In this document: in pieces, positions 1-9,120 of the stretch
Position numbering within the stretch: the first letter of the stretch is position 1
How the letters are laid out: each line of letters begins with the position of its first letter
Assembly (NCBI GenBank): GCA_963827755.1
Contig: CAWHCQ010000036.1
Coordinates: 1 to 44,727 of the forward strand
Length of the DNA stretch: 44,727 nucleotides
DNA from: an uncultured Gammaproteobacteria bacterium
Lineage (GTDB): Bacteria > Pseudomonadota > Gammaproteobacteria > UBA9214
Direction: 5' to 3'
Translations under genes and position numbers: made by a program
The notes under the pieces: generated by a model
What the model was told of the DNA's origin: nothing
Database searches by the model: none
Seen by the model: the letters and a program-made list of their open reading frames with translations, nothing else

Positions 1-12
1 TGGAGCCAACCC

Positions 13-42
13 AAAGGCTGCTTATGGCCGAACTCGGACTAG
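13..42. repeat. 30-bp dyad site (AAAGGC-tgctta-TGGCCG-aactcg-GACTAG)
   Basis: Fits the AAYGDC-N6-core-N6-GNCNTT pattern seen about 20 times in 1-8.2 kb; TGGCCG core at offsets 13-18. Confidence 0.6.
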
Positions 43-73
43 TCGGCAGATTGATGGTATCAAGGAGCATTAG

Positions 74-739
74 ATGACATCTCGGTCCTGCAAGAATATT
101 GCATGTGCTGCAGCCATGGCTACTGTGCTTCTATATGTTGAGACAACCTATTCCGCCACACAATTTCGTGACGAAGGGATAGCAGCGGAAGCCTCGATTA
201 ATGAGTACATTGGCTCTAATGCATGTTCAGAGTGCCATCAAGGAAAATATGACGACTGGTCAGGAAAGCACATGTCCCATTTTGTTCGTTACAGGGATGA
301 TATTACCGAGTCACTTCCGGTAACTCTGAGTAATGCTCCGATTAACGGGGATGAGGTTTTCCTTGTAGTCGGTGATAAAAAGAAGATGGCTTTTGTAGAC
401 AAGCACTGGCAGGTGTTCCCGTATCAATATCACATTGGAAAACAGAAATGGATAAAGAGAAATGAGTGGCGCAATCAAGATTATCGTCTGCGTTGCGGGT
501 CTTGCCATACTGTCGGATTAAATCCAAAAACGAGACAATTCGTTGAACTTAATGTCGGATGTGAGGCGTGCCATGGCCCTGGTAGAAAACACGCTGAGAA
601 CCCAGCAGAGAAGAAGATGAAGGTGCCGGGAAAAACAGATGGACGCGATGTGCTTTTTACCTGTCGTAGGTGCCATAACGAAAGAAGGAAGCATTCTCGC
701 CCCATCCAAACGTTTAGCGGTGTATTCCACGGGAAATAA
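74..739 (+). CDS. Secreted tetraheme c-type cytochrome (c554/c552-like)
   Basis: SD AGGAG upstream; signal-like N-terminus; motifs CSECH, CGSCH, CEACH(GPG), CRRCH; visibly AT-richer than the core genes. Confidence 0.85.
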   Translation: MTSRSCKNIACAAAMATVLLYVETTYSATQFRDEGIAAEASINEYIGSNACSECHQGKYDDWSGKHMSHFVRYRDDITESLPVTLSNAPINGDEVFLVVGDKKKMAFVDKHWQVFPYQYHIGKQKWIKRNEWRNQDYRLRCGSCHTVGLNPKTRQFVELNVGCEACHGPGRKHAENPAEKKMKVPGKTDGRDVLFTCRRCHNERRKHSRPIQTFSGVFHGK

Positions 740-786
740 AGGTAACGGTTAAACCGTCATTTACACAATCGGCCTATATTTATCCA

Positions 787-1019
787 ACACCTCATCATCA
801 GCCGATTTGCGACTTTGTGAATGTCTGGTTCTGCCGGTGTCTCCGTTGCCGGTCTCAAAAACAATCGTTATTCAGGGTGCGCCGAAGGGTAAGTGACTGC
901 TCAAAAAGGACGTTACCGGGGGAAGCAGTTGAGTTTTCAGCTAAACGCGTACTTCCAACCCTAAACGGAAGTACAGCATCTTATATTGTATGCCCGAGAT
1001 TGAGGCGAAAGCTGACATC
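787..1019. repeat. Cluster of dyad sites: half-sites at 787 and 820; full sites at 885-914, 944-973, 989-1019
   Basis: Example 944: AACGCG-tacttc-CAACCC-taaacg-GAAGTA. Starts are spaced 59 and 45 bp, as in the other clusters. Confidence 0.6.
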
Positions 1020-1210
1020 TGTGTTAACCCACTTGGAAACGCAGCGTCAAATATAACCGCAGCACTGCAGTCGGCAAACCCCGGAAGACAAATGACGAGC
1101 TACTCTAGCGCTTTTCTTTTGATTTGTCAGCCAGACAACTAGTCGCGTGATTGCAAGACGGGAACAAGACGGCTAAATTGCGCATGATTCATGCATGGGG
1201 AGAAAACGCA

Positions 1211-1780
1211 ATGAGCATGCTCGCAACCGGTTTACTGCTTTGGGTGGTGGTGCACCTGTTTCCGTCGCTGCTGCCGGAGCAGCGGCAAAAACTGATAAGT
1301 CGCATCGGCGACAAGGCCTACCAGGGTATCTTCGCGCTGTGCATCCTGGCCGGGCTGCTGCTGATCGTATTCGGTTGGCGCAGCGCGATCCCGACGCCGG
1401 TTTATACTCCGCTGGCCGAGCTGCGTGAACCTGCGATGCTGCTCGTGGTCATTGCTTTCGTGCTGCTGGTCGCCGCCAACTTCCCGTCGACACGCATCAA
1501 GCGCGTGATCCGGCACCCCCAGCTCAGCGGGGTGCTGTTGTGGGCGATCGCGCACCTGTTGATGAACGGCGACAGCCGATCACTGCTGCTGTTCTCGGTG
1601 CTGGGCGTCTGGAGCCTGGTTTCGATGCTGACCATCAACCGTCGCGATGGCATCTGGATCAAGCCCGGCAAACCTGACGGCTGGGGCCAGGATATTATTA
1701 TCGTGATCGTGGCGCTGGCAGTATCAGCCCTGGCAGTCTATTTCCACGAGTACCTGGCCGGTATCGCCCTGATCACCTGA
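1211..1780 (+). CDS. nnrU: NnrU family membrane protein
   Basis: GLLLWVVVHLFPS...YQGIFAL and RHPQLSGVLLWAIAHLLMNGD signatures; ATG 1211 follows GGAG. Confidence 0.85.
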   Translation: MSMLATGLLLWVVVHLFPSLLPEQRQKLISRIGDKAYQGIFALCILAGLLLIVFGWRSAIPTPVYTPLAELREPAMLLVVIAFVLLVAANFPSTRIKRVIRHPQLSGVLLWAIAHLLMNGDSRSLLLFSVLGVWSLVSMLTINRRDGIWIKPGKPDGWGQDIIIVIVALAVSALAVYFHEYLAGIALIT

Positions 1781-1844
1781 GTGAGAATAATTCGACAGCC
1801 CCGCCGACTGGCGACGATAGCCGGGCCCGAGTATTCGGCCTACA

Positions 1845-2131
1845 AATGTCTCTTGTGGGTCGGCGAAGAGCGCAACCAGGTTATGAATGTCTTCTCTGTG
1901 TATGAACTTGCCGTTCAGACCAGTACCCGGGATGGCTAGAGTTGGCCGACTCCAGTCTTCGTCGGGCATTGCAACAATCGGTGAGAGGTGGGCCAGGAAC
2001 GGCAGGTATCAGCCCGCAACCAGCCGTTAAGCAAATAACTATCTAATAATTAGCTAAAAGACAGCAAACGACCCAACTGCGACATTCAGCGTAAGTTACT
2101 GTATGTCTTAAACGTACTGGAACCTGTCGTT
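1845..2131. repeat. Cluster of dyad sites: half-site at 1845; full sites at 1886, 1931, 1998, 2057, 2102
   Basis: 1998: AACGGC-aggtat-cagcccg-caacca-GCCGTT. 2057: AAAGAC-agcaaa-CGACCC-aactgc-GACATT. Spacings 45/67/59/45. Confidence 0.75.
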
Positions 2132-2204
2132 CCCGGGCCGGGTTCTGGACCGAGACTATCGATCCATACAGGACCTTCACAGTCCCTGATTTGAATGGGG
2201 CATC

Positions 2205-2786
2205 TCAGGCAACCGCTCGCCAAGCCGCCAGTAAAGCGAACACCAGGAAGACACCACCGCTCATCCGGTGCAGCCAAAGATGAGGAAGGCGCTGCAACAT
2301 CGTGCGTCCGGCCCATACCCCAAGCACTGACACCATTACCAAAGAGGCAGTGGCACCCAACCACACTGGTATAGGATCTAAACTACCTGCCAATCCCGCT
2401 ACCGCGATCTGTGTCTTATCGCCGAATTCGGCCACAAAGATCAACAGCAGTGTAGTAAGGAAAATGCCGTGGCCCGACCTCTCCGCCACATCCCCTGACT
2501 CGTCATCATCCTGTTTGCATAAGGCGTGAATACCAAAGACACCGAACAATACGGCTACCAATCCAGCAGTCACACGTTCAGGCACCCAGGCAGCCACTCC
2601 CGCGCCGAATAATACTGCCAAGGTATTAAGCACAAGAAATGCTGTCGTCGCTCCCAGTATCACAGGCCAATGACGGTGACGGGCCGCCAAGGTCATGCAC
2701 ACCAACTGGCTCTTGTCACCGATCTCCGCCAGAGCAATGAGGGTAAAGGTCGATAAGAAAATGGAAAGTGATTCAGGTGGAACCAT
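2205..2786 (-). CDS. TMEM165/GDT1 (UPF0016) family Ca2+/Mn2+ transporter
   Basis: Two E-x-G-D-K-[ST]-Q motifs (AEIGDKSQ, AEFGDKTQ); hydrophobic. Confidence 0.92.
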   Translation of the reverse strand: MVPPESLSIFLSTFTLIALAEIGDKSQLVCMTLAARHRHWPVILGATTAFLVLNTLAVLFGAGVAAWVPERVTAGLVAVLFGVFGIHALCKQDDDESGDVAERSGHGIFLTTLLLIFVAEFGDKTQIAVAGLAGSLDPIPVWLGATASLVMVSVLGVWAGRTMLQRLPHLWLHRMSGGVFLVFALLAAWRAVA

Positions 2787-2920
2787 ATATGAATGACAGT
2801 TTTGCTATGCCAGGGAGGAACTTTATTATACAAAGCTCACATCGCGAGACCGATCAAAGGTAAGAGCAATCTATACCCCACTATGACAAAACGAATACAG
2901 ACTTGCCTGGGGATAATCCT

Positions 2921-3862
2921 TTACTCCTGGCAAAGATGAACTTCCACAATTGTGTGAACGATGCCAAGATCCCTGGGGATGAGACTTTTGTAGTACTCCG
3001 GCTGCTTGGGTGTGTCACTCACTACAGCTAGTGTGGCTGAATAGATTCCAGGCCCAATGGACCAGATATGTAGATCAGCAATTCGGTTATCATCAACACT
3101 CTCGATGGCGGCACGAGTTTGTTCCAGCATGACACTAGGGGCCTGATGATCCAGCAGTATGCCACTTGTATCGCGAATCAACCCCAAGGACCACCGAGCC
3201 ACCAAAATAGCACCAACGATTCCCATTACCGGGTCCATCCAATTCAGACCCATAAATTTTCCAGCAAGCAGAGCGAAAATTGCTAGCAACGATGTAAGTG
3301 CGTCTGCCAAGACATGAAGATAAGCGGCACGGAGGTTGTGATCCGTATGCTCATGGCGGTGATGGTGTGGGTCTGCATGCTGGTGTTCATGGTCGTGTCC
3401 ATGATGATGCCCCCCCAACATAATCATGCTGACACCATTAACTATTAAGCCCAGAACTGCAACTACAATGGCTTGATTAAAGGCAATCTCGACAGGGTTA
3501 AATAAACGGTTAATACTCTCCCACGCCATTAGGAGTGCAAAGAGGGCAAGTAATACCGCACTCGTATAGCCAGCGAAGGCATTGACCTTGCCTGTCCCAA
3601 AACAGAAACGCGAATCTGCGGCACACCGACGAGTATAGACATAGGCGATGGTTGTGATGCCGAGGGCTGCTGTATGCGAGGCCATATGCAAACCATCTGC
3701 CAGCAGAGCCATTGAGCCGTATACGAGGCCCGCAGTAATCTCGATGACCATCATCGTCGCGGTGATGAGTATTACCCAAAGGGTGCGGCGCTCACCAGGT
3801 CTTACCTTGTCCTGACCGAAGATATGGTCGTGTTGCCATTGTCGTGTGGTTTTAGTGTGCAT
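2921..3862 (-). CDS. dmeF: CDF family Co/Ni efflux transporter, DmeF-like
   Basis: SMALLADGLHMASH, His-rich loop, NLRAAYLHVLADALTS. Confidence 0.88.
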   Translation of the reverse strand: MHTKTTRQWQHDHIFGQDKVRPGERRTLWVILITATMMVIEITAGLVYGSMALLADGLHMASHTAALGITTIAYVYTRRCAADSRFCFGTGKVNAFAGYTSAVLLALFALLMAWESINRLFNPVEIAFNQAIVVAVLGLIVNGVSMIMLGGHHHGHDHEHQHADPHHHRHEHTDHNLRAAYLHVLADALTSLLAIFALLAGKFMGLNWMDPVMGIVGAILVARWSLGLIRDTSGILLDHQAPSVMLEQTRAAIESVDDNRIADLHIWSIGPGIYSATLAVVSDTPKQPEYYKSLIPRDLGIVHTIVEVHLCQE

Positions 3863-4106
3863 TATGCTTTCCTTTCTGACTTGCTACCTGAATTGAGGGG
3901 CATGGCACTGTACCAAAGGAACAGTAAACACAGCAGTCACCATATTTGGGGCGTAATATCACACCGCAGCCCTTACACTCGTAGTAGAACTGGCAACAAT
4001 CAGTTGGCATCGTTTCAGTCTCACAGTGTCCACATTCAGGGCATGTGATAGTGGATTGCTGCACCACCGCGACATTTGCCTTAATTTGATTCTTGTTCTC
4101 ACTCAT
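3852..4106 (-). CDS. GDCCVxC domain-containing Cys-rich protein
   Basis: CPECG...MPTDCCQFYYECKGC...GDCCVYCSFGTVPCP; overlaps the dmeF start. Confidence 0.85.
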   Translation of the reverse strand: MSENKNQIKANVAVVQQSTITCPECGHCETETMPTDCCQFYYECKGCGVILRPKYGDCCVYCSFGTVPCPSIQVASQKGKHNAH

Positions 4107-4158
4107 ATTTCGATAATATCAACAATGGCTTATTCGGGAGCCGTTTTCATTTGTGCTG

Positions 4159-4390
4159 AATGTCCTGTTTTGCCTCTCCCCGCAAGTGTGAATACAGATT
4201 GCTGGGTGTGAACGGTCACTTATGCTGCTACTGAGACCTCCACATGCTGGCTGGGAATGACCGGTTCTGGCCGAACTGAGAAGTAGATTGACCAATCACA
4301 TATCCAGGTGTCTGGCGTATATCCGATATTGGCCCGAACTCGGAACTACATGAAATTTTTATATAAGATTCAGCTAAACGACGGGTGTCG
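4159..4390. repeat. Cluster of dyad sites: half-site at 4159; full sites at 4211, 4256, 4318; left half at 4377-4390
   Basis: 4256: AATGAC-cggttc-TGGCCG-aactga-GAAGTA. 4211 to 4256 is 45 bp; 4318 to 4377 is 59 bp. Confidence 0.7.
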
Positions 4391-4879
4391 GTCCTTTCCT
4401 ACGTCCTGCGTTTGTCTTGAACTGAGGTCCCTTCCCTCCACCGGCATTACCCGGCTTCCCCGGTACTACGGACCTCTCCGCCACCCCAAGGCGCCCGGCC
4501 TGTCCCTCACGGGCGTCCGGTTGGTCATCCTTCACCACGCCAAGGGGCTTCCCGTGTTGCGTGCGTTTCCCTTGTGTACATGCTGTCGCCACTACCCCGG
4601 CACAGTGACTGAGGGCACTGCTTTGCTCATTCCCCCCAGTCATATCAGCCTTCCCCGCATGGGTGGGCGGGTCGGCCTGTGCAACGTCCTTTTCGAGGAT
4701 TGCTCAGCGTTCACTCACGTTACGGCCTGCACACTCACTGGATCATCTAAAATGATCTTTTACATCAGAGGCTTCAGCCACTTCGTTACCTCCATGACTG
4801 CTCCGATTGCTTCCGGCTGGAGCAAAATTGCCGGGTGGGACTCTCACCCACTGGAAAACGCCGCCTTCGCACGGCGCAC
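4391..4879 (-). mobile_element. Group II intron 5' fragment (about DI-DIII; no RT ORF, no DV/DVI)
   Basis: Minus strand begins GTGCGCCGTGCGAAGGCGGCGTTTTCCAGTGGGTGAGAGTCCCACC. DIII-like segment AGTACCGGGGAAGCCGGGTAATGCCGGTGGAGGGAAGGG. A stem-loop at 4654-4671 has ACCCA in its loop, complementary to the 5' exon end TGGGT. Confidence 0.85.
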
Positions 4880-4895
4880 ACCCAAGTGGGACGTT
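4880..4895. repeat. Half dyad site forming the intron 5' exon (ACCC-aagtgg-GACGTT)
   Basis: Matches offsets 15-30 of the CGACCC-core sites at 2057 and 5811. Confidence 0.65.
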
Positions 4896-5058
4896 CAGTA
4901 CGACTGGTCTCTTTCCATACTTTCTATACCTGATTTCCGAGTATTTAAAAACTCTACTGGCTTGATCTGCTCAAGACTTGCTGCAATAGTACTGAAAATT
5001 TCGCTCATTAAAAAATGGGTTCGTGTAGCCATTTGTTATCTATGCTGCTTCCTGGAGT

Positions 5059-5676
5059 GTGATTTTGGAAACGTTAGGACAAACGGAAGTGAAACGAGTT
5101 TTGAACGTGGGAGGCAATAACAAGGCGATCCCACTGCCCTCTCAATATACTGAGTTTGAGCATTTGCTGCTTGATATAGACCCGAAAGGCTCGCCAGATA
5201 TTGTGTGTGATGCACGCCAGCTTACATCTCTTGAGGCTGGTCAGTTCGATGCAGTTTATTGTTCACATAATCTTGAGCACTACTATAGACATGATGTACC
5301 GAAGGTTCTTGCTGGATTCTTGCACGTTCTTAAGGACGGTGGCTTTGCGCAAATACGAGTACCAGACATAGCAGAAGTGATGAAAGTCACTATCGAGCGA
5401 GGTTTAGATATAGATGATGTACTTTACGAGTCGCCGGCTGGGCCGATTATGGTTCTAGATGTACTGTACGGTTATAGCGTTGAAATAGAGCAAAGCGGTC
5501 AAGACTTTTACGCCCACAAAACTGGTTTTACACAGAAATCCCTTTTGACAGCACTACGAAAAGTTGGATTCTCAAATATATACAGTATGACAGGTAACCT
5601 CGAAATTAATGCTATAGCGCTTAAAGGGATACCCGACCAACACACACGCACACTATTCAATCTTCCAAATAGCTAA
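5059..5676 (+). CDS. Class I SAM-dependent methyltransferase-like protein
   Basis: VLNVGG motif I-like, DIVCDA, FDAVYCSHNLEH, VLKDGG; GTG start after GGAG. Confidence 0.7.
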   Translation: MILETLGQTEVKRVLNVGGNNKAIPLPSQYTEFEHLLLDIDPKGSPDIVCDARQLTSLEAGQFDAVYCSHNLEHYYRHDVPKVLAGFLHVLKDGGFAQIRVPDIAEVMKVTIERGLDIDDVLYESPAGPIMVLDVLYGYSVEIEQSGQDFYAHKTGFTQKSLLTALRKVGFSNIYSMTGNLEINAIALKGIPDQHTRTLFNLPNS

Positions 5677-5684
5677 TAACTCTG

Positions 5685-5885
5685 AATGTCCGAAAGTGGC
5701 CGAAGGTACGCGTTTACTGTTTCAGCCAGGAACCAGGTTCATGCGATCGGGAACGGCAAGTATCCGCTCGAAACCGGAAGTACATGATTTACCCATATAA
5801 GATTGGACTAAACGACGGGAGTCGACCCAACCACGACCTTCATCGTAAGTGTCTGCATGTCTTAAAAGTACTGTAAGTAGTCGTT
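5685..5885. repeat. Cluster of dyad sites at 5685, 5752, 5811, 5856
   Basis: 5685: AATGTC-cgaaag-TGGCCG-aaggta-CGCGTT. 5811: AACGAC-gggagt-CGACCC-aaccac-GACCTT. Spacings 67/59/45 are identical to 1931-2102. Confidence 0.75.
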
Positions 5886-6026
5886 CCCGAGCCGGACTCT
5901 GGTCGGCAACCTTTGACATAATTTGTTATAAAACTCCTCGTACTTCTTGTTGAACTCAAAGAAATTCAGAGGGTTGCCGATAACCTCGTATTGTACGGAA
6001 AAGGGCTTTTATTCTTTCTTTAATCA

Positions 6027-8063
6027 ATGAACTCGGAGCAGAAAATACCATATCGCCCTGACATCCAGGGCCTGCGAGCGATTGCTATCGCGATAGTAGT
6101 GCTGGCACACGCGAACATCCCTGGCTTTGCAGGCGGATTTGTTGGCGTGGATGTGTTTTTCGTACTCTCCGGGTTTCTGATTACCGGCCTTTTAGTAAAG
6201 GAGCGTCTGGAGACCGGGACGATCCGTTATGGTACGTTCCTTTCCCGACGGTTACGGCGCCTGTTGCCCGCACTGCTTGTCATGCTGGTTACGGTGCTTT
6301 TCCTGGCATCGATGCTGCTGTCCAGTTATGAAGCGCAAATGCAGACCGGTTCATTAGTGTATTCGGCGACCTGGACCAGCAACTTCTACTTCGCCTTCGC
6401 CGAGTTTGACTACTTTGCGGCTCTGAAGGCCAAAGATGTCTTCCTGCATACGTGGTCGCTGGGCATCGAGGAGCAGTTCTATGCCGTTTGGCCGTGGCTG
6501 GTATCGCTTTCCTTTGTAATCGCTGCCGCCAGCTCCAAACCGGATCGTGATTTCCGGTCTCTGTTCACCGTCATTGCCATCTTTTTCGTTATCGGTATCG
6601 GCCTTTGTCTCTACTGGGCGCAAACTGCGCCGTTGCTTTCGTTCTACATGATGCCATCCCGCGGCTGGCAGTTTGCCCTGGGCGCGAGTGTATTCGTCTA
6701 CTCGCACAGATCTCGATTGGGGTGGTCTGGCGACTCCGGATTCCTTCACTCGACCACTACGATGCAACTGGCTGGCGCCCTGGGCCTGGTACTTATTATT
6801 GGCAGCGCGGTGTTGCTGCATACCGAGCTTAACTACCCGGGCTATTACGCACTGTTTCCGTCCATTGGTGCGGCGCTACTGATACACGCTGGAACCGGCA
6901 CGCAAGCACCCGCCGTGAGCCGCATACTCGCAGGCAGGGCCTTCGTCTGGCTGGGTGACCGCTCGTATTCTCTGTACTTGTGGCATTGGCCGGTCCTGTT
7001 GCTCGGTGGTGCATTCGGCCTGGCGGAGCTACCGGCTGGTATTGCCGCTCTTGTAGGCATTGCAATCCTGCTCGCAGTAGTGAGCTATCACTGGATCGAA
7101 AGACCGTTCTGGAAGGGTCGCTTCAGTGCGACTCCCACGCGACTCGTAACGTTGACGTCTGCACTGGCTATAGTCGTTACGTTCGGGCTGTCACACTCGC
7201 TGAGTACCGTGGTTTTCAGGGACGCAGTTGCATCGGCCAATCACGGCGACACTGATTCCCGTGCCGATGCACCCAACATCTTTGTGGCGTTCAAGTGCGA
7301 TAGTTGGTACCACAATTCAAAGGTTGTGCCGTGCGTGATCGGCGACAGCAATGCCAGATATACCGCTGTGCTGATCGGAGACAGCATCGGCACGCAGTGG
7401 GCTTCATTATTGCCGGAAATCTACAAAGAGCCTGACTGGCAAGTATTGGTTCTGACCAAATCTGCGTGTGCGATCGCAGACCTTGAATACTACTACAAGC
7501 CCGCAGGCAAGATGTATGACGTCTGCACGGAGTGGCGGAACAGAAGCATCGAGTATATCGAAAGGCTTCAGCCGGATATTGTGTTTATCGGCAGCTCATC
7601 CACTTATAACTTCTCAAAGTCCGAATGGGTTGGAGGCACAGAGCGTGTAATCGCAAAGCTCGCCTCGGCCGTGCGACACGTCGTAATCATTGCGGGCACG
7701 CCGGTACTCAGTTTCGACGGGCCGAGCTGCCTCAAAGAGCCGTACCGTTTCACGTCTCGTCTGCGCAACAGTCAGCACATCTGTGAAGAAGCGTTGATGA
7801 ATACAGCCAGCGATGATGTTGCTACGTACATGGGGCGGGCGGCGAGCGGCATTCCCAATGTACATATACTGAACCTCAACGACCTGGTCTGCCCCGGACG
7901 AAGCTGCGCAGCGCGTAGCAGGGACGGACTCACCGTATTCCGCGATCATCAGCACCTGACCGCCTCTTTCGTGGTGGCCCAGACACCGGCGGTGTTGTCC
8001 AGGCTTAACTCGATTGGCCTGGGGCCGTCGTATCTGAAAGACATCGTGTCCCTGGCAGACTAG
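6027..8063 (+). CDS. Acyltransferase-3 with C-terminal SGNH domain (OafA/YrhL-like O-acetyltransferase)
   Basis: YRPDIQGLRAIA, GGFVGVDVFFVLSGFLIT, HTWSLGIEEQFY, IGDS and DHQHLT. Confidence 0.92.
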   Translation: MNSEQKIPYRPDIQGLRAIAIAIVVLAHANIPGFAGGFVGVDVFFVLSGFLITGLLVKERLETGTIRYGTFLSRRLRRLLPALLVMLVTVLFLASMLLSSYEAQMQTGSLVYSATWTSNFYFAFAEFDYFAALKAKDVFLHTWSLGIEEQFYAVWPWLVSLSFVIAAASSKPDRDFRSLFTVIAIFFVIGIGLCLYWAQTAPLLSFYMMPSRGWQFALGASVFVYSHRSRLGWSGDSGFLHSTTTMQLAGALGLVLIIGSAVLLHTELNYPGYYALFPSIGAALLIHAGTGTQAPAVSRILAGRAFVWLGDRSYSLYLWHWPVLLLGGAFGLAELPAGIAALVGIAILLAVVSYHWIERPFWKGRFSATPTRLVTLTSALAIVVTFGLSHSLSTVVFRDAVASANHGDTDSRADAPNIFVAFKCDSWYHNSKVVPCVIGDSNARYTAVLIGDSIGTQWASLLPEIYKEPDWQVLVLTKSACAIADLEYYYKPAGKMYDVCTEWRNRSIEYIERLQPDIVFIGSSSTYNFSKSEWVGGTERVIAKLASAVRHVVIIAGTPVLSFDGPSCLKEPYRFTSRLRNSQHICEEALMNTASDDVATYMGRAASGIPNVHILNLNDLVCPGRSCAARSRDGLTVFRDHQHLTASFVVAQTPAVLSRLNSIGLGPSYLKDIVSLAD

Positions 8064-8115
8064 CTTCGAGTTAAACTGATCCTTCCCCGCCTTTGCAGAA
8101 CGATTGCATGACGGG

Positions 8116-8190
8116 AACGGCAAGTTTTGCTGCTACTGCGGCCTTCGCTGCAATCCGGCAGATGTCTCTTTCTGGCCGTTACTCGCCCTT
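8116..8190. repeat. Terminal pair of dyad sites at 8116 and 8161
   Basis: AACGGC-aagttt-TGCTGC-tactgc-GGCCTT, then 15 bp, then GATGTC-tctttc-TGGCCG-ttactc-GCCCTT. Same cores as the 4211/4256 pair. Confidence 0.7.
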
Positions 8191-8318
8191 TTATTGATCA
8201 ACGCTAGATTACGAGACCAAAGGTACTGAATACACTCGAAACCTGCCCTTCGGCCTTCCAAATAGTGCCATTAAGAAAATCTGAATATTAATAGTAATTT
8301 CCACAGTCGACCAGCATT

Positions 8319-8466
8319 CTACTTCCCGCAATAAACTGCCGTGATCTGCTCGCGCTCATGACCCAGCTCCCGGCTGATAGTAAGCCGTGCCTGGCGGTCA
8401 ATCTCGCGCTGTTCAGTGGTTAGTACTTTGACTTTCGGCCCGCCAGCAGCCGGGGCCTTCCACCCA
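8319..8466 (-). pseudogene. C-terminal remnant of an Integrase_1-type tyrosine recombinase
   Basis: GWKAPAAGGP...DRQARLTISRELGHEREQITAVYCGK* with box II LGH and terminal catalytic Tyr; upstream sequence no longer resembles an integrase. Confidence 0.75.
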
Positions 8467-8616
8467 TCCGCTTTGGAAGGATGGATCCACAGCATTCTGC
8501 CGTTGTGCATCACAGGATCCGAATACGCTCAGTTGCCACGAGTACACGCAGTAGCCACGGTTAAAATCGATCGAGGGCAACAGCGTAAGAACACGAACCC
8601 GGCCTGGCATTCATGA

Positions 8617-9120
8617 TTACCACGCCGTGGCCTCACTGATAACGCTTTCGATCAATTGCACGACTTTCTGCACGGCCGCCCCTGAGTTTTCATCAGGCAA
8701 TGTAAACGGGCGACGATAGGACAGGTAGACGTGCTTCGGGTCAGCCGTCAGCACATAGATGCTGATGGTGAACGGGCACAGCAGGATATTCTCGTAGTTC
8801 GCCTGCGCAAGCTGGTGGGAAATACTTGCACTGCAAAACTCGACGGTCTCGGCTGCAATAAAAACATTCTCGGTAATACCAAACGCCTCGCCTGTCCGGT
8901 TCAGCATATCGCTGGCCGGCAGGGTGTGGGCGATATTGATACCCTTGCCCACGATGGCTGTCTTGACGCTGTCAAGCACATCCGCGAAATCACCCTCCAC
9001 CTTGAAGGACCTGACCGGTGGATCGTCGGCACAGCCGCTTACCGGCAGTAACAGACTGATACAGGCCAGCAGGATAACCTGGTACAGCCCGGTTCGCAGA
9101 GTTTGTTTGAATTGATTCAT
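8617..9120 (-). CDS. DUF302-like exported protein
   Basis: Signal peptide, then GDFADV...VEFCSA...LCPFTISIY pattern; SD GGAGG. Confidence 0.65.
   Translation of the reverse strand: MNQFKQTLRTGLYQVILLACISLLLPVSGCADDPPVRSFKVEGDFADVLDSVKTAIVGKGINIAHTLPASDMLNRTGEAFGITENVFIAAETVEFCSASISHQLAQANYENILLCPFTISIYVLTADPKHVYLSYRRPFTLPDENSGAAVQKVVQLIESVISEATAW

Follow-up and report, generated by a model that had tools for sequence, protein, structure and literature searches.

A repeated composite junction element, with exchange at its centres, points to a possible gene-shuffling system, integron-like yet distinct, in a sediment gammaproteobacterium

What separates the unrelated gene modules found at one end of a contig (C36) of an uncultured sediment gammaproteobacterium, and could these separators be the places at which modules are exchanged? 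A preliminary description of the window (the whole stretch of 44,727 nucleotides that was analysed) had listed about 23 equivalent 30-bp dyad sites within its first 8.2 kb, and had proposed a cassette-capture platform run by Integrase_1 (PF12835) recombinases. The analyses reported here suggest that a repeated junction element, with exchange at its centres, constitutes an integron-like but separate gene-shuffling system. Positions 1–8200 form the end of an array whose gene modules measure 0.4–5 kb; since the window is the entire contig, this array probably extends past the window's start.

The enrichment of the motif over shuffled DNA is directly observed. Strict matches to AAYGDC-N18/19-GNCNTT on the forward strand number four within 1–8466 (1886, 1998, 5811 and 8116), versus a mean of 0.13 in 200 dinucleotide shuffles of this segment, none of which reached four or more. 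The remaining 36,261 nt of the window contain no strict match, and the three matches on the reverse strand all lie within 1–8.2 kb. A relaxed pattern (at least nine of the ten specified positions, right hexamer GNCRTT) retrieves 11 sites, versus 2.38 ± 1.59 in the shuffles (11 reached in 0/200), and six sites in the other 36 kb of the window; three of the 11 (4115, 7031 and 7148) were missing from the earlier list. The 23 starts of that list score 10/10 (two), 9 (six), 8 (five), 7 (six), 6 (three) and 5 (one), and the majority of the listed sites are therefore degenerate. At the scale of the genome (2.85 Mb), a weight matrix for the site termed a below, trained on 18 sites all taken from other genomes, yields nine hits of at least 18 bits, whereas three simulated genomes gave 0, 1 and 0. 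All but one of the nine fall in three arrays, on contigs C36, C14 and C4.

Rather than being equivalent, 20 of the 23 listed starts sort into five classes at fixed spacing, X, a, b, c and d (table 1), and only 787, 1845 and 4159 do not match the unit profile. The listed sites are real, as sub-sites of one composite unit, and the break points seen at sub-sites fall on a and c, not on all of them. The composite unit X-a-b-c-d is a row of approximately 30-bp dyads with a half-site motif close to AAYGRCNGG; these 9-bp motifs stand 12 bp apart, a distance that is large compared with classical tyrosine-recombinase core sites and counts against the recombinase reading proposed below. Site a consists of 12-nt arms flanking the centre TGGCCG, and site c is an a-like site in inverted position, with centre CGACCCA. 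Among 43 distinct independent units, located by a b–c spacer pattern of which site a is no part, TGGCCG stands at its predicted position in 40 and CGACCC near the expected c centre in 31, the a centre being nearly invariant and the arms variable. Stand-alone a sites lacking b-c-d also exist, at 13 and 8161 in the window and at C4:91876. The unit is itself a mosaic of interchangeable sub-types, similarity being interrupted at +80, within b, and again at the c centre; in unit-versus-unit comparisons, 31 of 96 HSPs start at the a centre (0 or −1) and 18 of 96 end at +131 to +134, i.e. at the c centre.

Table 1. Sub-site classes and features of the array end (contig C36).
Feature	Position	Strand	Details
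Class X sites	1886, 4211, 8116		45 nt to a
Class a sites	13, 820, 1931, 4256, 5685, 8161		62–67 nt to b
Class b sites	885, 1998, 4318, 5752		59 nt to c
Class c sites	944, 2057, 4377/4880, 5811		45 nt to d
Class d sites	989, 2102, 5856		
Site a alone, no b-c-d behind	13–42	+	centre TGGCCG 25–30
Module 1, multihaem cytochrome c-like gene	74–739	+	Pfam PF13435, PF14537, PF14522; GC 0.46
Junction unit 1	820–1019	+	nhmmer 59–160 bits; a 820 (variant, with centre TGCCGG), b 885, c 944 (centre CAACCCT), d 989
Module 2, NnrU-family membrane protein	1151–1780	+	PF07298, 163 bits; GC 0.60
Junction unit 2	1886–2150	+	X 1886, a 1931 (centre 1943–1948), b 1998, c 2057 (centre 2069–2075), d 2102
Module 3, cation transporters (GDT1-type, CDF-type), 84-aa Cys-rich ORF	2205–4106	all −	PF01169, PF01545
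Junction unit 3, left	4211–4390	+	X 4211, a 4256 (centre 4268–4273), b 4318, c left arm and start of centre (4377–4390)
ORF-less group II intron, in centre of site c	4391–4879	−	RF02003, 109.9 bits
Junction unit 3, right	4880–4937	+	remainder of c, degenerate d
Module 4, SAM-dependent methyltransferase	5059–5676	+	PF08241, PF13649; GC 0.43
Junction unit 4	5685–5905	+	a 5685 (centre 5697–5702), b 5752, c 5811 (centre 5823–5829), d 5856
Module 5, AT3-SGNH acyltransferase	6027–8063	+	PF01757, PF19040
Terminal junction	8116–8190	+	X 8116, a 8161 (centre 8173–8178), simple right arm, no b-c-d
PF12834/PF12835 ICE-type gene scrap, last 51 codons only	8319–8528	−	69-aa frame
Second displaced ICE fragment, next to the PF12835 scrap	8469–8600		

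The layout of a tyrosine-recombinase core site is present in these units, namely two inverted arms enclosing an overlap region of 6–8 bp, the same in both partner sites. It shows in the 12-nt arms with their common outer motif, in the constancy of TGGCCG and in the location of break points at the centre. The arms do not covary: complementary positions average 5.39 versus 5.03 for site a (114 of 2000 permutations reach the observed value) and 6.19 versus 5.99 for site b (333 of 2000). Folded as single-stranded DNA, the modules and the a-to-c stretch do no better than shuffles in 16 of 18 cases (z from −2.2 to +1.6, these 16 values lying between −1.1 and +1.6, the two outliers at about −2.2 being the two strands of 933–1040). 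Taken together, the absence of arm covariation and of a fold fits a double-stranded protein-binding site.

Two further observations of the preliminary description hold. The sites do end near 8190, the terminal a site being the last in the window, and the modules do differ in GC content (0.43–0.60, the remainder of the window being at 0.60).

Units are not restricted to this locus: 15 were identified on six contigs of this genome (G000) and 117 in 59 metagenome contigs, and 18 of the 36 further genomes compared within the genus have units too, G000 and the related genome G012 being the richest. Co-orientation is the rule, with a single orientation within each array (C36, C14 and C4 here; C208, C30, C39 and C182 in G012; C138 in G015) and in 31 of the 34 multi-unit metagenome contigs, the other three corresponding to overlapping hits on both strands. 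An exception is G022, in which units are spread over 70 kb in both orientations. The C4 array is flanked by housekeeping genes, with no integrase nearby.

Comparisons between relatives support the view that the dyads mark where unrelated gene modules meet, and that what distinguishes one relative from another is the presence of entire modules, with breaks at dyad centres. From 1943 to 8178, C36 and contig C39 of G012 share a block at 96.7–98.4% identity, both ends of which fall on an a centre; its flanking neighbours differ on each side, module 2 being missing at the corresponding position of G012, where a full unit is found past 8178. The blocks shared by C4 and G012:C30, and by G012:C30 and G017:C6, each end at a c centre. 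Overall, blocks common to different genomes are 93–99% identical and end exactly at a or c centres. Across 76 sequences, collapsing leaves 28 internal alignment ends, of which 13 are no more than 3 nt away from a centre, versus about 0.6% (0.63%) of positions by chance, it being understood that two of these 13 are intron flanks and that four rows represent one event (L522); about half of the 28 ends are not at any recognised centre. Logan metagenome contigs from four studies likewise diverge or stop at 1942/1943, 5830 and 8178, with varied sequence to the left of 1943 and divergence right after 5830. No circular or excised product was seen among these data, where a single low-depth joint going back from 4370 to 2111 occurs in one contig. 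All genomes are short-read MAGs, so that some module orders could be assembly errors; such an error is unlikely where units no more than 90% alike are joined at a 6-bp centre.

The centres also receive mobile elements. The group II intron of C36 interrupts a c centre (TGGGT|CG, reverse strand) and that of C14 interrupts an a centre at the equivalent position (TGGC|CG). Both G012:C39 and a contig from run X1 (joint 4390>4880) lack the C36 intron exactly, and its family reaches a summed depth of hundreds to thousands in the same sediments, versus about 8 for the flanks. The genus also has IS91-type elements that carry a tyrosine recombinase, and these insert at dyad centres as well: their conserved integrase-side end is followed by the dyad centre and right arm in four copies from G051 and one from G052 (alignment read by eye), and at L545 such an element separates the left arm of c from its centre, within an otherwise complete unit. 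Most junctions contain no inserted element, among the 15 units of G000 and the 117 of the metagenome contigs.

A cassette-like platform is supported by these results. The best explanation, which we hold tentatively and at slightly less than even chances, is that a conservative site-specific recombinase shuffles modules at the centres of the composite units. Such an enzyme would act on double-stranded DNA, bind the half-sites and exchange strands inside the invariant 6–7-bp centre, with sites a and c as crossover points, a recombining with a and c with c. It would most likely be a tyrosine recombinase provided in trans. As units are co-oriented, a module could leave as a circle and re-insert at another unit, and the X, b and d dyads may serve as accessory binding sites, like those of the Tn4430 IRS.

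If a recombinase is at work, which one? The Integrase_1 family was the initial proposal, on the basis of a tyrosine-recombinase remnant at the array end. This remnant is of the PF12835 type, at a distance of 130 bp from the array's final a site, but it proved to be only a 51-aa ICE scrap: residues 19–69 of the 69-aa frame are 63–75% identical to the C-termini of 288–294-aa proteins of relatives, one of which scores PF12834 and PF12835, and the frame itself has no Pfam hit. Among 36 genomes of the genus, PF12835 (present in eight) shows no association with the motif, units being found in 4/8 positive versus 14/28 negative genomes (Fisher p = 1.0). Furthermore, G012 (97% complete, the genome richest in units) has no PF12835 hit, other arrays lack such a gene, no unit lies in the loci L140 and L143, whose intact genes stand in an ICE context with none behind their 3′ end, and none occurs in G002 and G023, two relatives with intact PF12835 genes. 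That this family operates the platform is accordingly extremely improbable.

Integrons are the textbook platform of gene capture, dif modules being a recent second; the attC sites of integrons are 57–141-bp imperfect palindromes with R″-L″…L′-R′ boxes that fold as single strands, and integron cassettes usually hold one co-oriented ORF. The arrays resemble integrons in that co-oriented elements lie between unrelated promoter-poor genes, neighbouring strains differing by whole cassettes. One could imagine an atypical integron or CALIN, whose units would be unusual attC sites used by the IntI of the genus, which scores above the family cut-off in 18 of 37 genomes; G000 has only a deleted intI, on C40. 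The introns found at the recombination sites recall group IIC-attC introns, integrons also drawing group II introns to their recombination sites (PMC3001079). This reading is nevertheless very improbable. Units occur in 8/18 IntI-positive and 10/18 IntI-negative genomes, and four intact intI genes have none within the adjoining 20 kb; two such stretches that were checked (L039 and L040) contain canonical 60–70-bp attC sites of the TAACAA…CGTTAG kind, the genus also possessing ordinary integrons. In the units, no RYYYAAC/GTTRRRY pair was found by eye and no attC-like fold is seen, in agreement with the initial view that they are not attC. They are double-strand-type dyads with a central crossover and no adjacent integrase, unlike single-strand hairpins cut at one end, and they bound modules of one to five ORFs on either strand.

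Alternatively, no dedicated machinery might be involved. REP/BIME elements occur as hundreds of dispersed copies of hairpin-forming units, with a cognate RAYT flanked by such units, and specific IS elements insert into REP palindromes. The units are similar in forming mosaic palindrome clusters with defined linkers between genes, and in receiving specific elements. They could be genus-specific BIME- or NIME-like repeats, acting as landing pads for introns and IS and undergoing occasional illegitimate or element-mediated rearrangement, a reading that we consider unlikely yet worth taking seriously: it would account for the interchangeable sub-types, the insertions into dyad centres, the arrays without linked recombinase and the dispersed units of G022. 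It sits poorly with the few, clustered copies, the co-orientation across kilobases, the near-invariant centre between variable arms, the breaks exactly at centres and the absence of hairpin covariation or stable fold; the flanks of the four Y1/RAYT-like gene loci inspected contain no such dyads. Membership of the REP/BIME class itself was rejected (nine strong a sites in the genome, no dispersion, no covariation, Y1-type genes unflanked). Neisserial mosaic elements (dRS3 plus RS repeats) offer a comparable case, with intergenic arrays of short dyads and conserved linkers, dyads targeted by the recombinase of a mobile element, and a suspected role in gene insertion and rearrangement. Their dRS3 repeat, a target of prophage insertion, is 20 bp long with about 700 dispersed copies per genome (PMC3898611), unlike the units, which exist in tens of clustered, co-oriented copies with an invariant centre. 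In another version, introns and IS91-type elements would home into centres, copies would recombine homologously and then be lost, leaving breaks at centres. The equivalent intron positions in C36 and C14, the abundance of the intron family and the IS91-type ends at centres go in this direction, but precise loss would be required at every junction, most of which carry no element, and neither the conserved multi-dyad unit nor its co-orientation would be explained, which makes this version improbable. Quite improbable too is a MITE-like origin, in which the approximately 133-bp stretch from a centre to c centre would be a non-autonomous transposon and the similarity boundaries its ends. Many HSP limits coincide with these ends, and the stretch bears terminal inverted repeats, as the a matrix also finds c on the opposite strand; however, genome comparisons revealed no empty site with conserved flanks and no target-site duplication, and instead show kilobases in common on one side of a centre and different flanks on the other, and the a sites at 13 and 8161 occur without the element.

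Returning to a site-specific recombinase acting in trans, the best candidate, on weak evidence, is the tyrosine recombinase of the IS91-type elements of the genus, whose integrase-side ends abut dyad centres. Its co-occurrence with units (7/9 versus 11/27 genomes) is not significant (p = 0.12), and it is absent from G000 and G012. No other recombinase was detected in 90 kb of G022:C8, and only one of the 59 metagenome array contigs contains a tyrosine-recombinase frame. Serine-resolvase res sites are not supported either, since resolvases (PF00239) were found in only one of five array-bearing genomes (G017), these MAGs being incomplete. A single canonical dif-like site occurs in the genome, at C34:42936 (three mismatches to a 28-nt consensus). 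Its arms and its centre are both unlike those of sites a, b and c, and a dif-like reading was discarded.

Two known systems come close in organization. The pdif (XerC/XerD) sites of Acinetobacter plasmids are 28–30 bp long, with two arms and a 6-bp centre (PMC6449649, PMC13141974, PMC7399989), and such short sites likewise bound accessory modules shuffled between replicons by an enzyme acting in trans; the units differ in being distinct from their genome's own dif, chromosomal, co-oriented where pdif sites alternate, and each accompanied by about 200 bp of further dyads. The Tn4430 IRS, a single 116-bp site inside a transposon with the gene of its recombinase TnpI adjacent (PMC2847244), has a core in which a 6-bp staggered cut is made between two inverted binding motifs, and one-sided extra copies of the motif that are accessory and impose directionality on directly repeated sites; unlike the IRS, the units are repeated between modules, with no neighbouring recombinase gene.

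Should the preferred reading be correct, the chromosomes of abundant sediment bacteria would harbour, beside ordinary integrons, an independent platform with its own site grammar, and cassette-style gene shuffling would have evolved more than once. That bacteria have here, in addition to integrons and dif modules, a third kind of gene-cassette system serviced in trans by an IS91-borne tyrosine recombinase is a more speculative and rather unlikely proposition; it would provide a function for the long-unexplained ‘extra integrase’ of some IS91 elements, and would make IS91-type elements a route for arrays to move between genomes. The defined 30-bp site with its invariant centre is directly testable in recombination assays. 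Since both an intron and an IS family target it, this site would join attC as a second natural example of a recombination site hunted by mobile elements.

The dyads that separate the gene modules at the start of the window belong to one longer repeat. Alignment of the intergenic regions revealed a unit of five dyads at fixed spacing, in which X is followed after 45 nt by a, then after 62–67 nt by b, after 59 nt by c and after 45 nt by d. The dyad motif of the preliminary description is indeed enriched over shuffled DNA, as its strict pattern has four plus-strand sites in 1–8466 against a mean of 0.13 in 200 dinucleotide shuffles, none of which reached four; the strict form is also confined to this region, as had been noticed, with no match in the remaining 36 kb. 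When relaxed to at least nine of ten positions, the motif yields 11 sites versus 2.4 in shuffles. Among the 23 sites originally listed, 20 have starts that fit the unit classes, whereas 787, 1845 and 4159 lie outside them, and most are degenerate (scores of 5 to 10 out of 10 across the list); the degenerate sites are nevertheless real, because they are sub-sites of the longer repeat. The modules between units are unrelated and of mixed orientation and base composition, as described, with the cargo given in the table and a GC content of 0.43–0.60, where the remainder of the contig has 0.60. A promoter and terminator scan of 1–8600 gave the same counts as in shuffles, and Rfam searches (whole window at gathering threshold; 1–9000 at E ≤ 1) matched a group II intron alone.

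Coordinates of features in the window and in other sequences (Gxxx:Cyy, contig yy of genus genome xxx, G000 being the source genome; Lnnn, extracted locus)
Feature	Position	Strand	Remarks
Module between units: multihaem cytochrome			
Module between units: NnrU			
Module between units: GDT1 + CDF + small Cys-rich ORF		−	
Module between units: methyltransferase			
Module between units: AT3-SGNH acyltransferase			
Cys-rich ORF, 84 aa	3852–4106	−	overlaps CDF gene start; in Pfam only weak zinc-ribbon-like PF07282, E = 0.17
Group II intron, ORF-less, 489 nt	4391–4879	−	RF02003, 110 bits
Recombinase remnant, 69-aa frame	8319–8528	−	
Intron pair	G000:C14:1718–4534 (L009)		
pgpA, broken into two ORFs (150 aa, 122 aa)	G000:C4:86784–87658 (L010 2785–3659)		both PF04608; just before the C4 array
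Inverted repeats, ~250 bp	G000:C4:87500–87830 and 98840–99080 (L010)		bracket the C4 array
Group I intron match	G000:C28:61506–61744 (L011 1507–1745)		RF00028, 81.8 bits; few kb from a contig-end unit
IS200/IS605-like element, small Y1-transposase frame	G000:C11:211370–213840		flanked by two identical 34-nt palindrome-bearing sequences
Integron-integrase gene with internal deletion	G000:C40:95643–96103 (L001 1154–1712)		keeps N-terminal ~110 aa and C-terminal ~66 aa (TIGR02249 positions 15–82, 249–314)
IS91-type elements, tyrosine recombinase upstream of transposase	G022:C8:411842–412717; G051:C13 and C14 (L544–L547); G052:C20 (L548); metagenome L494		

Site a consists of 12-nt arms on either side of TGGCCG. 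Our first set of a sites was anchored on this hexamer, which 27 of 35 units had where expected, the eight without it being excluded. The metagenome units were found without using site a and thus provide an independent test of its centre: 40 of 43 distinct units have TGGCCG where predicted, the other three deviating from it by one or two letters, and the arms are of several types. A matrix derived solely from the sites of other genomes gives nine matches of at least 18 bits in the source genome versus 0–1 in simulated genomes; eight of the nine fall in the arrays of contigs C36 (the window), C14 and C4. Site c is matched by this matrix on the opposite strand, with the centre TGGGTCG (CGACCCA on the plus strand), and is therefore an inverted a-like site; 31 of the 43 units have CGACCC close to the predicted position. 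Sites a, b and c have half-sites with a common motif, read by eye as close to AAYGRCNGG. With the a-site matrix, the flanks of the C11 element (see table) reach 14.4 bits, probably a chance match.

When 25 units were combined into a profile, it detected 15 units in the source genome (four each in C36 and C4, three in C14, two in C35, one each in C28 and C12). A single unit as BLAST query has matches in 18 of the 36 other genus genomes, including 22 places in the close relative G012, and a separate search found units in 15 of 24 genus genomes and in none of 16 genomes of other families in the class. An exact b–c spacer pattern retrieved 59 metagenome contigs with 117 units and none from viral contigs; BLAST retrieved none from plasmid or phage collections. 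One orientation is shared by the units inside each of eight arrays, and 31 of 34 multi-unit metagenome contigs are co-oriented, the three exceptions being overlapping matches on both strands; in genome G022, units are spread over ~70 kb in both orientations. No protein family recurs with the arrays, the clusters obtained being ordinary cargo or redundant contigs, and the closest named relatives of the acyltransferase have no units. Concept-level searches of open-access text did not turn up any account of sites of this kind. The C4 array is flanked by pgpA and folE2 and is without an integrase, and the C14 array adjoins another integrase, itself next to a tRNA-Val gene. About 72 nt of the repeat bracketing the 11-kb C4 array, with a perfect hairpin, occur in many copies per genome across the genus at 93–99% identity and are not called as tRNA by ARAGORN.

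The window is a whole 44.7-kb contig of a 2.85-Mb MAG (52 contigs, 92% complete), every assembly used being a short-read MAG or contig; since the finding sits at the contig start, the array probably extends past it. The runs holding the stretch are sediment metagenomes, and the closest named relatives of a housekeeping protein in the window come from uncultured sediment Gammaproteobacteria (e.g. Thiogranum sp., Ectothiorhodospiraceae MAGs).

Module boundaries in related genomes repeatedly fall in the sites, as the preliminary description would have it. A block shared with G012 (its contig C39) spans 1943–8178 and is bounded by a centres, at 96.7% and 98.4% identity with the exact absence of 4391–4879 as sole interruption. 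Identity begins at the T of TGGCCG, upstream of which the window has NnrU and G012 a different 200-aa ORF, and stops with the final G of the last TGGCCG, after which G012 has a full unit and the window unrelated DNA. Likewise, the 1.34 kb common to the C4 array and G012:C30 (95%) start exactly at CGACCCA, and a block common to G012:C30 and G017:C6 stops at a c centre. We then surveyed 76 array-bearing sequences, which total 541 kb and carry 226 annotated centres, for alignments of at least 400 bp and at least 93% identity between different sources. The 36 internal alignment ends collapse to 28, of which 13 lie within 3 nt of a centre (three at a, ten at c), against 0.63% of positions, and 15 lie away from any recognised centre. 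Two of the 13 are intron flanks and four rows represent one event involving L522, so that roughly eight independent centre events remain. Logan contigs from four studies, read in the window parts that have contig cover, agree with these break points: seven from run X1 match rightwards from 1943 and vary to its left, those from X6 and X7 diverge past 5830, and at 8178 contigs break off or change; the intron is missing from one X1 contig. A single low-depth X4 contig (depth 5.8) links 4370 back to 2111, a joint that would arise from a circular or tandemly repeated GDT1-CDF module or from another module order in a relative, to which we attach little weight.

The evidence best supports conservative site-specific recombination, with double-stranded dyads as substrate and strand exchange within an invariant centre. 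This reading rests on a centre that stays constant where the arms vary, on break points at centres, on co-oriented units, on a sites that stand alone and on the absence of single-strand structure. Its main rival is a BIME/NIME-like repeat family that would merely attract insertions and rearrangements. We infer the further parts of the scheme, namely the enzyme, a circular intermediate and a role for X, b and d. The layout resembles the IRS of Tn4430 (PMC2847244), with a crossover dyad and more copies of the same motif on one side, and the module arrays work like integrons or dif modules; membership of any of these families fails on the features tested.

The view that the sites are not attC was upheld, as neither the modules nor the a-to-c stretch folded clearly better than shuffles as single-stranded DNA (16 of 18 z-scores within −1.1 to +1.6, both strands of 933–1040 at about −2.2) and the pairing of left with right arms did not covary beyond the consensus. 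Ordinary integrons do occur in the genus: IntI exceeds the family cut-off in 18 of 37 genomes, and both intI-side stretches examined for repeats contain canonical 60–70-bp attC. An IntI-run system was rejected, as the 20-kb stretches next to four intact intI genes contained no unit. The one canonical dif-like site of the genome is located elsewhere, and the units are not dif-like. A serine resolvase, suggested by TGTC-like outer motifs and the palindromic GC centre, was not found in four of five array genomes, and Y1/RAYT-type genes are not flanked by unit dyads. As for tRNA-derived att sites, neither the window nor the vicinity of the C4 array contains a tRNA, and the tRNA-Val beside the C14 integrase has nothing in common with the sites.

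The frame next to the last a site has no Pfam match as a whole; over its last 51 residues it matches the C-terminal ends of 288-aa proteins scoring PF12834 and PF12835, so that its identification as an Integrase_1-type recombinase remnant was right. It is a mere scrap next to a second displaced piece of this ICE region, and no empty attB was seen beside it, the first 140 nt to the right of 8178 being without relative in the genus. The proposal that Integrase_1 recombinases run the array did not hold, with units in 4 of 8 PF12835 genomes versus 14 of 28 without, i.e. no association.

Nine genus genomes encode a tyrosine recombinase of ~304 aa with an IS91-type transposase after it; the two genes are adjacent in 17 of 18 loci examined. 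In five of the 18, the profile search places a unit at most 200 bp upstream of the integrase. In the elements listed in the table, the conserved integrase-side end borders on dyad centres of type a, b or c. G051 has four identical copies of the element. In alignment A2, this end runs into the centre and right arm of a dyad in the four G051 copies and the one in G052; judged by eye, two or three of these dyads belong to the c type, one to the inverted a type and one to the b type. At L545, the element lies between the left arm and centre of c in an otherwise complete unit. This integrase could recognise the dyads, or the element could merely hunt them; co-occurrence with units is not significant (7/9 versus 11/27, p = 0.12), and neither the source genome nor G012 has a copy. 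Two more distant IS91/integrase copies (G048:C6, G047:C341) lie divergently, directly beside intact intI genes.

The group II intron of the window sits in a c centre, between TGGGT and CG on its own strand. On C14, an 86%-identical copy and, after it, an RT-bearing intron whose RVT_1/GIIM ORF is frameshifted together split an a site between TGGC and CG, and the right flank of the pair carries an arm of the type seen in the a site at 5685. Contig depths summed over the intron reach hundreds to thousands in four sediment runs, versus ~8 for its flanks, and most copies there have a different, shared 3′ flank.
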